A stretch of DNA of 64,000 bases from Bacteroidia bacterium (lineage in GTDB: Bacteria > Bacteroidota > Ignavibacteria > SZUA-365), in the NCBI GenBank assembly GCA_027493955.1, contig JAOSJT010000001.1, forward strand, positions 4,138,552 through 4,202,551. The letters are read 5' to 3'. The notes beneath the pieces are model-generated. The model worked only from the letters and a program-made list of their open reading frames with translations, was not told the origin of the DNA and did no database searches. The position numbers and the translations under genes are program-made. This document shows, piece by piece, positions 34,327-38,808 of the stretch; position 1 is the stretch's first letter, and each line of letters opens with the position of its first letter.

Positions 34327-36123
34327 ATGACACGTCTCATTTTTTCCACTGCGATCGTACTCCCCCTGCTGCTCACAACGTGCACTACAGACCATCGTAG
34401 TGCCGCCGACCGTCACTTCGAGGAGGTTGCCGCGCACTTCATCGAAGCCTGGCTCGTTTCCCATCCCGAACAGGCGACAGCGCTGGGGGACCGCCGTTTC
34501 GACGACCGACTGAATGATTACTCCCACAATGGGATACAGAACGACATCGCGCTGTATCGTGCATATCTCGACACTTTGCGGGAAATACGCGTCGAGGATC
34601 TTTCGGCAGCACACATGATTGATTACGACATTATGCTGCAAAGTGTCACAGGAAGTCTTTTTACACTCGAAGAATTGCGCGAGTGGGAATGGAACCCCTT
34701 GTCATACAATCCCGGGGAGGCTATCTACGGCCTGATCGCGCGCAATGGAACGACGTTCAGCGCAAGAATGAAGGCCTTGGCCGCGAGACTGCGCGGTGTA
34801 CACGCTCTGCTCGACGCGGCCCGCGCGAATTTGACGAATCCTCCTGCAATTCACACCGAGACCGCGATCATTCAAAACGAAGGCGTCCTTGCACTGCTGA
34901 CCGGCATCGTGCAGGCTTGTATCGACAGCGTGGACAGTCCGCTGCGCGCCGAGCTCTCCACAGCTCGCGATTCCGCATTATTGGCACTCAGGGACTATGG
35001 TGCCTGGTTGTCGGAGGACTTGCTCCCGCGCTCACGACGTGACTTCCGACTTGGCGCGGCGCTGTACGCCAGGAAGTTTCAGTATAAACTCGATACGGAC
35101 ATGAAACCGGAAGATCTGTTGCAGGAGGCCTGGCTCGATCTCGCCCGTACCACAGAGGACATGTATCAGGTCGCACTTCCATTGTATGCGGAGCTGTTCG
35201 ACAGTCGTGACGCCGCGAAACTCGAGCGCGACGCACTCATACGCGCGGTACTCGCCAAGCTCAGCGATCAGCATTCCAACGACGATCGCATCGTTGAGCA
35301 GGCGCGGCGTGACCTCGTGGCGGCCACGGATTTCGTAAAGGCACAGGGCTTGGTGACCGTGCCCGCCGAGCCATTGGAGATCATCGTGATGCCGGAATTT
35401 CAGCGTGGTGTCGCGGTGGCTTACTGCGACAGTCCCGGAGCACTGGAGAAAAACGGAAAAACGTTTTTCGCCATCGCTCCCACTCCGGCATATTGGACCG
35501 ATGCACGCAAGGAGTCGTTCTACCGCGAATATAATGACCACATGCTGCGGAATCTTGTTGTGCACGAAGCGATGCCGGGGCACTATTTGCAGATAGCCGC
35601 ATCGCATAAGGCAGAGGCCCCGACACTCCTGCGTGCGATCACACCCAGCGGTGTGTTTGCCGAAGGGTGGGCGACCTACAGCGAGCAGCTCATGGCTGAC
35701 GCCGGTTTCGGCGGAGCGGCGATGAAGATGCAGCAACTCAAGATGCGTCTCCGTCTGTTGATCAACACCATTCTCGACCAGAGTGTCCACACGATGGGCA
35801 TGAGCGAACGCGATGGCATGGCGCTGATGATGGAGCAGGGATTTCAGGAGGAGAGCGAGGCGGCGGGTAAATGGCGCAGGGCCTGTCTCACCTCGGTGCA
35901 GCTCAGTTCCTACTATTACGGCAACCGGAGAATCAACGACATACGCGCACGCTATCAACAGCAGGCGGGTGAGCGCTTCGACCTGCGGGCGTTTCACGAT
36001 ACCCTGCTTTCCTTCGGCACCATTTCGCCCAAATATCTGCCCGTGTTGCTCAAGCTGCCCTCCGATGCCGCATCGGCACCGTCGGCAGCGGAACGGGAAA
36101 ATTTGGAACGCCGACCAGGTTGA
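34327..36123 (+). CDS. DUF885-family lipoprotein (zinc-metallopeptidase-like HEAMPGH motif)
   Basis: Signal/lipobox MTRLIFSTAIVLPLLLTTC; length ~600 aa; conserved HEAMPGHYLQ block typical of DUF885. Confidence 0.7.
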   Translation: MTRLIFSTAIVLPLLLTTCTTDHRSAADRHFEEVAAHFIEAWLVSHPEQATALGDRRFDDRLNDYSHNGIQNDIALYRAYLDTLREIRVEDLSAAHMIDYDIMLQSVTGSLFTLEELREWEWNPLSYNPGEAIYGLIARNGTTFSARMKALAARLRGVHALLDAARANLTNPPAIHTETAIIQNEGVLALLTGIVQACIDSVDSPLRAELSTARDSALLALRDYGAWLSEDLLPRSRRDFRLGAALYARKFQYKLDTDMKPEDLLQEAWLDLARTTEDMYQVALPLYAELFDSRDAAKLERDALIRAVLAKLSDQHSNDDRIVEQARRDLVAATDFVKAQGLVTVPAEPLEIIVMPEFQRGVAVAYCDSPGALEKNGKTFFAIAPTPAYWTDARKESFYREYNDHMLRNLVVHEAMPGHYLQIAASHKAEAPTLLRAITPSGVFAEGWATYSEQLMADAGFGGAAMKMQQLKMRLRLLINTILDQSVHTMGMSERDGMALMMEQGFQEESEAAGKWRRACLTSVQLSSYYYGNRRINDIRARYQQQAGERFDLRAFHDTLLSFGTISPKYLPVLLKLPSDAASAPSAAERENLERRPG

Positions 36124-37148
36124 TGGAACCTTCGCACGATACCGACGCGCTAGCAGCCCTCGGAACGGAGTTCACCGGCACCGCTCCGAACGCGGTGATC
36201 GCGCTCAAGGGTGACGCTTCCGACCGCAGGATTTACCGGCTTGTGTATTCTTCGCAAAGTCTGATCGGCGTCGTCGGACCCAATGTGGCGGAGAACCGCG
36301 CCTTCATCGGCTTCGCGCGCTCCTTCCGCGCCGCAGGATTGCATGTGCCGGAAGTGTATCGCGTATCGGAACACGAGCAGGCGTATCTGCAGGAGGATCT
36401 CGGAGACGCGCTTTTCAGCGACTGGCAACGGACACATACGACAGCCGAGGGTGTGGATGGCGAGGCCATGGCCCTGTACGGCATCGTATTGCAAGAGCTG
36501 CTGCGTTTTCAGCACGACGCCGCCTCCGCAGTGGATTATTCACTGTGTTATCAGACCCGCGAGTTCTCGACCGAAGCGATGCTTTTCGACATCCGTTATT
36601 TCCGCGACAACTTCCTTGCACGTCTCGCAGAAGTTCCGTGGGACGAGCGGCGTTTCATGGCCGATTGCAACCTGCTGGTCGAAATGCTGTGCCGGGAGCC
36701 GCGCAACGGTTTCCTCTACCGAGATTTTCAATCCCGCAATGTCATGCTGCGCGATGGCACACCCTGGTTCATAGATTTCCAATCCGGCCGAAAGGGCGCT
36801 CCGCAGTATGACCTCGCGTCCATGCTGTACGACTCAAAGGGCGGGCTTACAACCGCGCAGCGCGAGACGCTCATCGATCAGTACATTGCCGGCCTGAGGT
36901 CGCGGTATGATGTCGATGAAGTCGTTTTCCGGCGCCGTTTCGCCGGTTTCGCCGTGTTGCGGCTCATGCAGGCACTCGGCGCTTTCGCCAACCTCGGTCT
37001 GAACAAAGGCAAACCAACGTACCTCGAGTTCATTCCGTCACGTTTGAGCACAATGCGCGAGGTCGTTTCCTCAGCGGTAATTCTCGACGAAGTCCCGTAT
37101 CTGAGGGGTTTGTTGCTGCGGTGCGGTGATGGTGGTGATTCAGAGTGA
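36123..37148 (+). CDS. aminoglycoside-phosphotransferase-fold sugar kinase, AmgK-like (anomeric MurNAc/GlcNAc kinase); LicA-type alternative not excluded
   Basis: APH/ChoK-family catalytic loop YRDFQSRNVML (Brenner motif HxDxxxxN with Y) and IDFQSG metal-binding loop; 341 aa; a nucleotidyltransferase gene follows in the same direction. Starts TGATG-overlapped with the DUF885 stop. Confidence 0.6.
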   Translation: MEPSHDTDALAALGTEFTGTAPNAVIALKGDASDRRIYRLVYSSQSLIGVVGPNVAENRAFIGFARSFRAAGLHVPEVYRVSEHEQAYLQEDLGDALFSDWQRTHTTAEGVDGEAMALYGIVLQELLRFQHDAASAVDYSLCYQTREFSTEAMLFDIRYFRDNFLARLAEVPWDERRFMADCNLLVEMLCREPRNGFLYRDFQSRNVMLRDGTPWFIDFQSGRKGAPQYDLASMLYDSKGGLTTAQRETLIDQYIAGLRSRYDVDEVVFRRRFAGFAVLRLMQALGAFANLGLNKGKPTYLEFIPSRLSTMREVVSSAVILDEVPYLRGLLLRCGDGGDSE

Positions 37149-37149
37149 T

Positions 37150-37705: not shown

Positions 37706-38104
37706 ATGAGTCTGTTGATTCACATCGCATCATTCGGATACAGAAAATCCGGTATCCCCGCAGACGAGTCCGGCCATGGCGGCGGGTATGTGTTCGACTG
37801 CCGCGGTTTGCCGAATCCCGGACGCGAAGAGCGCTTTCAGGCGCTGACGGGATTGGACGCGGAGGTGGAACTGTTTCTTGCGGCTGAGGAGGCGGTAGAG
37901 GATTTTCTTGCGCACTGCCTTGCGCTCTGTCTGAGTACGGCGGAGGCGCATCGGCGCAGGGATTTTACGCAGCTGTCCGTAAGCTTCGGCTGCACGGGAG
38001 GTCAGCATCGCTCGGTGTACTGCGCCGAACGGACGGCACAGGCCCTGCGCGATGCGGGGTATGATGTCGTCGTGACGCATAACGAACGGGAGCATTGGCC
38101 ATGA
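37706..38104 (+). CDS. RapZ (YhbJ/YvcJ) C-terminal-domain-like protein lacking the P-loop NTPase half
   Basis: 132 aa; ...VSFGCTGGQHRSVYCAERTAQALRDAGYDV matches, as recalled, the GCTGG(Q/K)HRSV block of the RapZ family C-terminal domain; no Walker A. Stop overlaps the start of the next gene (ATGA). Confidence 0.45.
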   Translation: MSLLIHIASFGYRKSGIPADESGHGGGYVFDCRGLPNPGREERFQALTGLDAEVELFLAAEEAVEDFLAHCLALCLSTAEAHRRRDFTQLSVSFGCTGGQHRSVYCAERTAQALRDAGYDVVVTHNEREHWP

Positions 38105-38808
38105 AGGGCATGATACTTGCCGCGGGGTTCGGGACGCGACTCGGTGCGCTGACGAGCGATATTCCCAAGCCGCTGCTCCCGGTCGCCGGGAAACCCATGA
38201 TAGCGTCAGCGGTCGAAGCGCTCAAACGAGCCGGTTGTACCGATATCATCGTCAACGCGCATCATCATGCCGGTATGATCGTCGCGCACTTCAGGGAAAC
38301 GGATTACGGAGTCCGGATACGCGTGAGCGTCGAGAGCGATATTCTCGGTACCGGAGGAGGGATTGTGCATGCGCGTCCGTTGCTCGGAGATGCTCCCTTT
38401 TTTCTTTTACATAACGCCGACATCGTCACCGGCGCGATTCTTTCCGCGCTGGTGGAGGAGCACCGTCGGCACGCGCCGCTTGCGACGCTGCTTGTGCACC
38501 GCAGGGAAACGAAGCGTGCCGTGCTGTTCGATGAAAGTATGCGCTTTCTCGGCAAGGAAGTGTGGCGCGAAGAAGGCATGGAGTTTCCGGACGATGCACA
38601 GCGCTTCAATTACTGCGGTGTGCAGGTGATATCGCGGGAGTTTTTCGATCTCGCTTTTCCGGATGGTTTTTCAGATCTGTTCGATTGCCACCGCATCGCA
38701 CTCTCGTCCGGGCGGATGATACGGGGGATGGAACATAACGCGTATTGGACGGATCTTGGAACAGAGGAACGGATTCGCGAACATGAGCAACATGAGCATA
38801 TCCGATAG
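38101..38808 (+). CDS. sugar-1-phosphate nucleotidyltransferase, MurU-like (MurNAc-alpha-1-P uridylyltransferase)
   Basis: MKGMILAAGFGTRLGALTSDIPKPLLPVAGKPMI N-terminal NTP-transferase motif, ~235 aa, downstream of the AmgK-like kinase. ATG at 38101 (the track start at 38095 is TTG). Confidence 0.6.
   Translation: MKGMILAAGFGTRLGALTSDIPKPLLPVAGKPMIASAVEALKRAGCTDIIVNAHHHAGMIVAHFRETDYGVRIRVSVESDILGTGGGIVHARPLLGDAPFFLLHNADIVTGAILSALVEEHRRHAPLATLLVHRRETKRAVLFDESMRFLGKEVWREEGMEFPDDAQRFNYCGVQVISREFFDLAFPDGFSDLFDCHRIALSSGRMIRGMEHNAYWTDLGTEERIREHEQHEHIR

Follow-up and report, generated by a model that had tools for sequence, protein, structure and literature searches.

A stand-alone RapZ C-terminal-domain protein encoded between AmgK-like and MurU-like genes is the split form of a common kinase+RapZ_C architecture

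Introduction

RapZ proteins are found far beyond the enterobacteria that possess GlmY and GlmZ. In Escherichia coli, RapZ (PDB 5o5o, 5o5q and 5o5s) is the RNase adaptor for GlmZ, with sRNAs and RNase E as its partners; the pocket of its C-terminal domain (H190, T248, G249, H252 and R253) has been defined crystallographically (PMC5737377), and the isolated domain binds GlcN6P (PMC7073468). In Firmicutes and Actinobacteria, the RapZ-like protein YvcJ is encoded beside GlmR (YvcK), binds UDP-GlcNAc and also interacts with GlmR when the latter is bound to UDP-GlcNAc (PMC13046274; PMC7525490), and the title of Pensinger et al. 2023, cited in PMC13046274, presents GlmR as an accessory uridyltransferase.

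The AmgK/MurU shortcut of peptidoglycan salvage is encoded in Pseudomonas putida by an APH-fold kinase gene followed by a small nucleotidyltransferase gene. To our knowledge, AmgK and MurU of the Pseudomonas pathway are separate proteins for which no RapZ-type partner has been reported, so that such a module would be dispensable for catalysis as such. Conversion of MurNAc-6-P to MurNAc is performed in Pseudomonas by the HAD enzyme MupP. The AmgK/MurU route affects fosfomycin resistance, serves for labelling peptidoglycan metabolically, and is believed to provide UDP-MurNAc in Tannerella forsythia, which is devoid of MurA and MurB.

Here, we analyze three genes in a 64-kb stretch of DNA (hereafter, the window) that have the gene order of the P. 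putida pair, with a RapZ C-terminal domain (RapZ_C) between the two enzymes. In contrast to what is known of P. putida, this domain accompanies the enzymes as a free protein in the window and is fused in most species. The window arrangement is the split version of a common but undescribed kinase+RapZ_C architecture.

Results

The pieces are encoded in the window in the order kinase, RapZ_C, MurU-like transferase:

36123..37148, + strand: AmgK-like anomeric sugar kinase (APH fold), 341 aa (Pfam APH, NCBIfam AmgK models)
37706..38104, + strand: RapZ C-terminal-domain-only protein, 132 aa (PF22740), the detached middle module of a kinase / RapZ_C / uridylyltransferase set
38101..38808, + strand: MurU-like sugar-1-phosphate nucleotidyltransferase, 235 aa (NCBIfam MurU NF045761), its start overlapping the RapZ_C stop (ATGA)

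The kinase ORF yields 341 aa from the ATG at 36123 to the stop at 37148, or 342 aa if read from the TTG at 36120. At the ATGA junction, the ATG of the MurU-like gene (38101-38103) overlaps the TGA of the RapZ_C gene (38102-38104) by 4 nt, which bears out the translational coupling proposed in the original prediction; the other sequence features on which it drew are also all present where it had placed them. These include a VWA/Por_Secre_tail gene whose gene-caller start, at 38783, gives it a 26-nt overlap with the MurU-like stop. This VWA/T9SS gene had been suspected of being co-transcribed with the others, but it is absent at the corresponding position in the closest relatives and lies outside the kinase/RapZ_C/MurU-like unit.

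RapZ_C does lie between the kinase and the murU-like gene, as originally described; however, its junction is tight only on the downstream side, and on the upstream side, a non-coding spacer of about 558 nt (37149-37705), built of repeats, separates it from the kinase. This repeat-filled spacer had been overlooked in the original prediction. Two elements were delineated in it:

37156..37270, + strand: two inverted heptamer arrays that pair into a hairpin (Tandem Repeats Finder, period 7; RNA fold)
37238..37733, + strand: tandem duplication of a 107-nt unit, 4.6 copies, 93% matches (Tandem Repeats Finder, copy alignment)

The left array, (AGTRAAG)x5.3, occupies 37156-37192, and a complementary (CTTTACY) run occupies 37244-37270. 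The heptamer pattern has 14 matches in the window, 13 of them in the spacer and one weak match with two mismatches at 28241, compared with 0 expected by chance, and the predicted RNA fold of 37149-37285 has an energy of -44.1 kcal/mol (z = -6.4). Every 107-nt unit contains the heptamer block together with a degenerate version of the RapZ_C start (ATG AGT TTA TAG), the final copy being the functional start. The relative L005 has a longer left heptamer array and a single 107-nt unit, and the short-read contigs L001-L004 all break off 62 nt upstream of the RapZ_C ORF. The kinase and RapZ_C genes have been pushed apart here by an expanding heptamer/107-nt repeat spacer.

The kinase matches Pfam APH (2.3e-14), and its only curated matches in NCBIfam are the AmgK models NF045698 and NF045759 (1.5e-16 and 8.7e-16), with bit scores of 60.6 and 57.9 that fall below the respective equivalog cut-offs of 500 and 550; eight fused relatives score likewise, at 27-66 bits. 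Given these matches, and because no choline-kinase family was matched in the Pfam and NCBIfam profile search, the kinase is AmgK-like rather than LicA-like, as predicted. Its closest solved relative is 3csv (6.3e-21), which is also the top Foldseek match for a fused relative, and the catalytic motifs YRDFQSRN and IDFQ are readable in the sequence and intact. The best curated match of the transferase is MurU NF045761 (6.6e-41; 140.6 bits, with the equivalog cut-off of 250 not reached), compared with 89 and 87 bits for the next families. Its top two solved relatives, P. putida MurU 4y7t (9.6e-28, residues 1-229 on 1-216, full length) and 8hhd (4.8e-24), are both MurU structures aligned end to end, in agreement with the MurU-like assignment made earlier.

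The 132-aa ORF matches the RapZ C-terminal domain profile PF22740 with high significance (1.5e-32; 112.7 bits vs a gathering threshold of 27) across profile positions 2-119 of 121, and aligns to the NCBIfam RapZ model NF003828 at positions 160-277 of 278 only (97.2 bits vs an equivalog cut-off of 244). It matched no P-loop family in Pfam or NCBIfam, the N-terminal Walker-A domain being absent, and the 558 nt upstream contain no ORF longer than 34 aa. The original reading of this ORF, as a RapZ C-terminal domain that lacks the P-loop half, stands. The protein has the three-dimensional fold of the E. coli RapZ-CTD and retains its phosphate-binding loop (GCTGGxHRSV in both; FGCTGGQHRSVY at residues 94-105 of the window protein), and the FDxR..LPNP motif is common to both as well. 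Identity to the 6-phosphofructokinase substrate-binding subdomain is low, about 14%.

Of the five pocket residues of E. coli RapZ, the window protein retains T248, G249, H252 and R253, as T97, G98, H101 and R102, all invariant in the clade to which it belongs. In contrast, members of this clade have an invariant Gly at the position of H190 and a G-[H/N]-G-G-G loop that E. coli RapZ lacks, and E. coli K251 is replaced by Gln. In view of the two replacements, the identity of the ligand is not transferable from E. coli; GlcN6P sensing by the window protein would be an analogy, and its ligand may well differ. D31, R33, H101 and H125 are also invariant in the clade, and in a comparison of 105 members, invariance falls on the anion-binding pocket rather than on a surface patch, which argues for ligand binding. 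The C-terminal tail has two Lys/Arg among its last 19 residues (clade range 1-4), compared with eight in E. coli RapZ. All clade motifs (the G-[H/N]-GGG loop, LPNPGR and FGCTGGQHRSV) are present in the window protein, with the kinase directly upstream, and the set fits an unnamed family of AmgK-like kinase+RapZ_C, fused or split.

Among 80 species genomes carrying this domain clade, from Bacteroidota, Acidobacteriota, Elusimicrobia, Calditrichia, Verrucomicrobia, Gemmatimonadota and other lineages, the kinase carries RapZ_C as a C-terminal fusion in 75, and in 61 of these 75, a MurU-like gene directly follows the fusion; an adjoining MurU-like gene is missing in 12. Two further loci among the 80 genomes are split triads, and overall, the MurU-like transferase is linked in 63 of 77 kinase-linked loci, as it is in the window. 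The predicted association with amgK- and murU-like genes is thus strongly conserved. No other conserved neighbor was found in the loci surveyed, and a few RapZ_C genes (L030, L065 and L090) are orphans with neither partner nearby. The window kinase aligns with the fused proteins of the 80 genomes up to about residue 330 (phmmer, 150-298 bits) and stops at the inter-domain linker, where most relatives run on into RapZ_C. At E<=1e-20, there are at least 8000 fused kinase+RapZ_C proteins, and the fusion followed by a MurU-like gene occurs in at least hundreds of species. Of the 150 best cluster representatives, 95 are kinase+RapZ_C fusions.

The kinase/RapZ_C split is common to a whole clade of relatives; the nearest relatives, L005 and L089, have the same synteny as the window. 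Split triads with tight junctions occur at L089, L091 and L092, and an ATGA overlap at the kinase/RapZ_C junction is seen in L027 and L089. Among 64 loci of other species, 36 have the same 4-nt overlap between the MurU-like start and the stop codon before it. We also identified Pfam-confirmed RapZ_C+NTP_transferase and APH+RapZ_C+NTP_transferase proteins, the latter being apparent triple fusions; one RapZ_C+NTP_transferase fusion is identical in two independent metagenomes. Hence, the three pieces are known as a kinase+RapZ_C fusion (the commonest form), a RapZ_C+transferase fusion, an apparent triple fusion, or all separate, and in fusions, RapZ_C is always between the kinase and the transferase. 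The original prediction had attached RapZ_C to MurU; fusions of the two do exist, but the commonest covalent partner is the kinase. The arrangement appears to be undescribed, given that our literature search found no paper naming both RapZ and AmgK; yet it is not unusual, being the split form of a very common kinase+RapZ_C protein.

Discussion

From the sequence comparisons, RapZ_C is probably a non-covalent subunit of the kinase and uridylyltransferase that binds a phosphorylated amino sugar, and not an RNase adaptor, given that the basic tail of E. coli RapZ is absent. By homology to the Pseudomonas AmgK/MurU shortcut, the kinase would phosphorylate MurNAc and/or GlcNAc at C1 and the transferase would synthesize the UDP-sugar. 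RapZ_C would dock non-covalently on the kinase, and probably also on the transferase, and its pocket (the C96-S103 loop, D31, R33, N37 and the G-[H/N]-GGG loop) would bind a phosphorylated amino sugar or UDP-sugar, so that kinase flux could be tuned by feedback sensing or the sugar-1-phosphate could be handed from kinase to transferase. Against this reading, an AlphaFold model of one fused relative has confident domains (pLDDT 92.6) but a pTM of only 0.75 and a low-confidence linker, and it predicts no fixed placement of RapZ_C relative to the kinase. The 12 fused loci that have no adjoining MurU-like gene, the orphan RapZ_C genes, and canonical AmgK and MurU, with no reported RapZ-type partner, also speak against it.

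Because the scores of the two enzymes fall far short of the equivalog cut-offs for AmgK (60 vs 500 bits) and MurU (140 vs 250 bits), the sugar could differ from MurNAc, and the pair might activate another (amino) sugar that goes into envelope glycans, in which case RapZ_C would act in that pathway. The scanned window ORFs (about 28 of the 49 long ORFs) include no further peptidoglycan-recycling gene, and Wzy_C, PMT_2 or sugar-epimerase genes adjoin some loci. Nevertheless, we regard this alternative as rather unlikely: AmgK is the sole curated kinase family matched, MurU leads the transferase families by a wide margin and also provides the top two structures, and the MurU pathway has been reported or is expected in Bacteroidota (PMC5790795; PMC13046382).

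RapZ_C might instead harbor a second catalytic activity, such as that of a sugar-phosphate phosphatase or phosphotransferase that converts MurNAc-6-P to MurNAc and thereby feeds its kinase. Consecutive pathway enzymes are often fused, and we observed that the invariant loop C96-x5-R102-S103, located between a beta-strand and a helix, resembles the loop, C-x5-R-(S/T), with which cysteine phosphatases bind phosphate; the equivalent loop of E. coli RapZ holds sulfate or malonate through backbone amides and the Arg (PMC5737377), and the invariance of D31, R33, H101 and H125 is in line with such a role. However, phosphatase activity has not been reported for any RapZ/YvcJ protein, our literature search found no paper linking RapZ to a CX5R motif, and the Cys is equally conserved as Cys247 in E. 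coli RapZ, which is a binder, making a catalytic role improbable. Slightly more doubtful still is a purely structural role, in which RapZ_C would di- or tetramerize the kinase and tether the transferase without sensing a ligand: the E. coli RapZ-CTD dimerizes alone, oligomerization is needed for RapZ activity (PMC5737377; PMC7073468), and the constant middle position of RapZ_C in fusions would suit a scaffold, but the invariant residues are those of the anion pocket. The original reading, a novel stand-alone GlcN6P sensor added to MurU and RapZ-like to the point of possible RNA or RNase adaptor roles, is supported by the domain homology with four of five pocket residues kept, by GlcN6P binding by the E. 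coli CTD alone (PMC7073468), and by the ATGA overlap and RapZ_C+transferase fusions, but is very unlikely considering the fusion to the kinase in most species, the H190 to Gly replacement with the extra loop, the missing basic RNA-binding tail, and the lack of any Rfam match, GlmY and GlmZ included, in the 64-kb window.

The ligand-binding subunit that we favor differs from E. coli RapZ in having neither the P-loop N-domain nor the RNA-binding tail, and in its partners, an APH-fold kinase and a nucleotidyltransferase, although both proteins are tied to amino-sugar/cell-envelope precursor metabolism. The YvcJ and GlmR pair shares, by analogy, the same grammar of a kinase fold, RapZ_C and a uridylyltransferase, but the kinase fold of YvcJ is a P-loop that is not homologous to the APH fold of the window kinase, and GlmR, as far as we know, is not of the same family as the MurU-type NTP_transferases. 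Tentatively, and with more doubt than for the subunit itself, RapZ_C could at root be a module that handles phospho-amino sugars when UDP-amino sugars are synthesized or salvaged, the enterobacterial RNase-adaptor role being a late exaptation. It would then pair with the kinase fold and uridylyltransferase of each lineage (APH kinase and MurU here, P-loop domain and GlmR in Firmicutes), and AmgK-like+RapZ_C would represent a regulated or bifunctional, as yet uncharacterized branch of peptidoglycan-sugar salvage, present in several hundred or more species from Bacteroidota, Acidobacteriota and other lineages.

Present annotations of these proteins, as ‘ATP-binding protein’, ‘RNase adapter RapZ’ or ‘UPF0042 nucleotide-binding protein’, are misleading. 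That RapZ_C is joined, in many phyla, to an anomeric amino-sugar kinase or else to a MurU-type uridylyltransferase provides a concrete context for the original job of this domain. Furthermore, it suggests that the AmgK/MurU salvage route of Bacteroidota, Acidobacteriota and other lineages includes a third component, so far unstudied.

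A RapZ C-terminal domain between kinase and transferase genes

The genes and repeats around the 132-aa RapZ_C ORF lie in the following order:

34174-36123 (+), DUF885 gene, the first of the ordered features
36123-37148 (+), APH-fold kinase, ATG at 36123 and stop at 37148, catalytic motifs YRDFQSRN and IDFQ intact
37149-37705 (+), 558-nt spacer, no ORF longer than 34 aa
37156-37192 (+), heptamer array (AGTRAAG)x5.3, within the spacer
~50 nt after the (AGTRAAG) array (+), inverted complementary heptamer run (CTTTACY)n, the other hairpin arm
37238-37733 (+), 107-nt tandem unit, 4.6 copies at 93% identity, the final copy supplying the true RapZ_C start
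37706-38104 (+), RapZ_C ORF, 132 aa, PF22740
38101-38808 (+), MurU-like nucleotidyltransferase, 235 aa, its ATG overlapping the TGA of the RapZ_C ORF (ATGA)
38783-40783 (+), VWA/Por_Secre_tail (T9SS-sorted) gene, gene-caller start at 38783, 26-nt overlap with the transferase stop

The original prediction was correct in its coordinates, in the FGCTGGQHRSVY block and in the ATGA junction, and also in describing the ORF as a RapZ C-terminal domain without the P-loop half. In profile searches, the protein matched essentially the full Pfam model of this domain (PF22740, 1.5e-32) and no nucleotide-binding family, and it covered only positions 160-277 of the 278 in the NCBI RapZ model. A degraded RapZ N-terminal domain (P-loop remnant) in the upstream spacer was considered and rejected, since nothing but repeats and short ORFs (34 aa or less) is found in the spacer. 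In public databases, this protein and its relatives are named “ATP-binding protein,” “UPF0042 nucleotide-binding protein,” or “RNase adaptor protein for sRNA GlmZ degradation”; these names are misleading because the protein lacks both the nucleotide-binding half and the RNA-binding tail.

The kinase, predicted to be AmgK-like rather than LicA-like, matched no choline-kinase (LicA-type) family; its sole curated family matches were two AmgK models, at ~60 bits against cut-offs of 500 and 550, and its best solved relative was an uncharacterised APH (3csv). The best family of the transferase was MurU (140.6 bits, cut-off 250), followed by families at 89 and 87 bits, and MurU structures were its top two solved relatives, aligning end to end. 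At the family level, the two enzymes can be called AmgK-like and MurU-like, neither being a certified equivalog. By inference from the Pseudomonas pathway, the kinase would make MurNAc/GlcNAc-alpha-1-phosphate and the transferase would then make the UDP-sugar. A rival explanation is that the cassette serves a non-MurNAc sugar pathway. In its favour, the curated-family scores of both enzymes lie below the cut-offs, and no other peptidoglycan-recycling genes were found in the window by a scan that covered all but ~21 of the 49 long ORFs; the best family and structural matches of the transferase, which are MurU, speak against it.

For the VWA/T9SS gene, possible co-transcription had been suggested; its overlap with the murU-like stop is real, but the gene does not belong to the unit, because it is not found at that position in the nearest relatives (loci L005 and L089). 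In L005, an opposite-strand T9SS gene is present there instead. On the other side of the cassette, the DUF885 stop and the kinase ATG overlap by 1 nt (TGATG, window 36121-36125), and the DUF885 gene is kept beside the kinase in L005 and L089, not in other phyla. A promoter and terminator scan of 35900-39000 yielded sites no more numerous than in shuffled sequence.

Distribution and domain architectures

The search of 5.8 billion proteins identified 3243 relatives of the RapZ_C ORF. Lengths of 130-140 aa are common among the closest, and several longer ones start with APH kinase C-terminal helices. One genome per GTDB species was scanned with two clade-specific peptide patterns, at least 598 stretches matched, and the best 80 loci were analysed. 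These derive from Bacteroidota, Acidobacteriota, Elusimicrobia, Calditrichia, Verrucomicrobia, Gemmatimonadota, Ignavibacteria, Methylomirabilis, and others.

Architectures among the best 80 loci
RapZ_C and AmgK-like kinase in one ORF (~475 aa): 75
 with a MurU-like gene immediately next: 61 of 75
 without an adjacent MurU-like gene: 12 of 75
 next gene hidden by a contig end: 2 of 75
Split triads, window-like: 2
RapZ_C with neither partner nearby: 2
Contig end, arrangement undecidable: 1

The predicted association of homologues with kinase and MurU-like genes is thus conserved. The original prediction also regarded a RapZ_C-only protein attached to MurU as an arrangement not described before; the ATGA coupling stands, but the window's instance is an ordinary member of a large, mostly kinase-fused family. 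In 36 of 64 loci, the gene carrying RapZ_C and the MurU-like gene after it share 4 nt at their stop-start junction, just as they do in the window. When the ORFs of the 80 loci were clustered in search of MupP, AnmK, and transporter genes, no gene other than the kinase-RapZ_C and MurU-like ones was shared by more than 8 loci.

When 1.84 billion cluster representatives were searched exhaustively with HMMER, 3358 relatives were retrieved, of which the best 150 were classified.

Architectures among the best 150 cluster representatives
APH+RapZ_C: 95 (15 of them N-truncated)
RapZ_C only: 26
Short fragments with an unassigned N-extension: 20
APH+RapZ_C+NTP_transferase, apparent triple fusion: 6
RapZ_C+NTP_transferase: 3

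One RapZ_C+NTP_transferase fusion (protein P0463, loci L094 and L095; 381 aa) is considered real because it is identical in two independent metagenomes; a separate kinase gene lies just upstream. The apparent triple fusions (P0430, P0442, P0469, P0491, P0523, and P0532; 712-816 aa), which come from other organisms, could in part be frameshift artefacts, since long sequences may be preferred as cluster representatives; the example that was examined comes from one short contig of 2.4 kb. More weight is therefore given to the fusion found in two metagenomes. Gut and rumen Bacteroidaceae are extremely rich in fused kinase-RapZ_C proteins, with at least 8000 at E<=1e-20. No relative with at least 47% identity to the window kinase is fused (lengths ~340-390 aa), and half of those at 40-46% identity carry PF22740. 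On long contigs, stand-alone RapZ_C forms tight kinase/RapZ_C/transferase triads in three loci (L089, L091, and L092). RapZ_C-only genes that have no kinase or MurU-like gene in their vicinity were seen as orphans in L030, L065, and L090, in the last of these after pheS. In every fused or split form surveyed, the order kinase, RapZ_C, transferase is invariant.

Probable fission and the repeat spacer

The spacer repeats were missed in the original prediction. The two heptamer arrays are predicted to fold as a hairpin of ~26 bp (-44.1 kcal/mol, z -6.4), and each 107-nt unit combines a heptamer block with decayed first codons of RapZ_C (ATG AGT TTA TAG; M-S-L-stop). An assembly artefact or loop was rejected: the repeat is taken to be real because several positions vary between its copies and because four independent short-read assemblies of the same organism (L001-L004) all stop at the tandem repeat, 62 nt before the RapZ_C ORF. 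These breaks place the kinase and RapZ_C on separate contigs, so that their linkage would be hidden in short-read data.

In the closest relative, L005 (78% protein identity), the spacer measures 219 nt; its heptamer array is longer than in the window, but the unit occurs once only. In L089, which shares the synteny, and L027, there is no spacer and the kinase stop and RapZ_C start overlap as ATGA. Because of these spacer-free and single-unit states, a split at the linker between the two domains, with coupling kept, most likely came first and was followed by lineage-specific growth of the repeat spacer. In a neighbour-joining tree, most stand-alone RapZ_C forms fall in one block nested among fused forms, which is weak evidence for fusion as the ancestral state.

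Genomic context

The scanned part of the window is ordinary chromosome, with genes for arginine biosynthesis, a GH31 glycosidase, CTP synthase, DnaG, and the like. Two large SpoIIE-phosphatase-domain proteins are encoded back to back at 28730-31453 (-) and 31452-34244 (+), the latter also carrying PDZ and GAF domains, and the pair is present in L005 and L089 too. A 2170-aa protein at 2374-8883 contains HYDIN/ASH-type Ig-like repeats and a BNR/Sortilin-like N-terminal region. Window 60001-64000 may be an acquired segment: the G+C content falls from ~0.58 to ~0.50, Pfam gives no match for the ORFs 60884-61876 and 62101-63015, and a PIN-domain protein is encoded at 63371-63799 (-).

Predicted function of the RapZ_C module

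AlphaFold, applied to a fused orthologue, predicts confident domains (pLDDT 92.6), but the pTM is 0.75 and the linker is weak and floppy, so that the model neither supports nor excludes a fixed RapZ_C-kinase interface. A rival explanation is that RapZ_C would be purely a scaffold.

An alignment of 105 clade members with the E. coli RapZ C-terminal domain revealed an invariant loop, C96-T97-G98-G99-x-H101-R102-S103-V104, and further invariant residues S9, F10, F30, D31, R33, N37, P38, G49, and H125. Four of the five E. coli ligand pocket residues (H190, T248, G249, H252, and R253; PMC5737377) are kept, whereas H190 is replaced by an invariant Gly followed by Arg (LPNPGR), K251 by Gln, and the clade has an additional glycine-rich loop, G-[H/N]-G-G-G, that is absent in E. 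coli. The invariant loop reads C-x5-R-S, which by our own observation is cysteine-phosphatase-like and would fit a catalytic role for RapZ_C, another rival explanation; however, this likeness found no support in the literature searched. A genuine RapZ-like GlcN6P/RNA function, likewise a rival explanation, would accord with the retained pocket residues, but the Lys/Arg-rich sRNA-binding tail of E. coli RapZ, with 8 basic residues in the last 19 (PMC5737377; PMC7073468), is absent (2 in the window protein, 1-4 across the clade), and an Rfam scan of the entire window found no structured-RNA family, GlmY/GlmZ included.

For the binding of a sugar phosphate there is precedent in E. coli, where the isolated C-terminal domain binds GlcN6P tightly (PMC7073468). 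A suggestive parallel is YvcJ of Firmicutes, a RapZ-like protein with a P-loop kinase fold and RapZ_C, which is encoded beside GlmR and interacts with it in a UDP-GlcNAc-dependent manner (PMC13046274); GlmR is called an accessory uridyltransferase in the title of a paper cited there. A common scheme of kinase fold, RapZ_C and uridylyltransferase would then be assembled from parts that are not homologous.

In the searchable literature, no paper mentions “RapZ” and “AmgK” together, terms for the RapZ C-terminal domain are confined to E. coli RapZ papers, and “RapZ-like” is confined to two B. subtilis GlmR papers, apart from one unrelated paper. The MurU pathway is still described as demonstrated in few species only, T. 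forsythia included (PMC13046382). The AmgK-like kinase with a RapZ_C module appears to be a family undescribed so far.

To conclude, at the level of sequence, the comparisons establish three modules in fixed order that were repeatedly fused and split in evolution, with the predicted phosphate-binding pocket retained and the RNA-binding and P-loop parts lost. The RapZ_C ORF can be regarded with high confidence as a kinase/transferase subunit that has become detached, and its putative binding of a phosphorylated amino sugar or UDP-sugar with moderate confidence; any choice of a particular ligand, or between feedback regulation and hand-over of the sugar-1-phosphate as the effect, would be made with low confidence. 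Taken as a whole, the RapZ_C ORF is probably best read as a detached kinase/transferase subunit that would bind a phosphorylated amino sugar or UDP-sugar.
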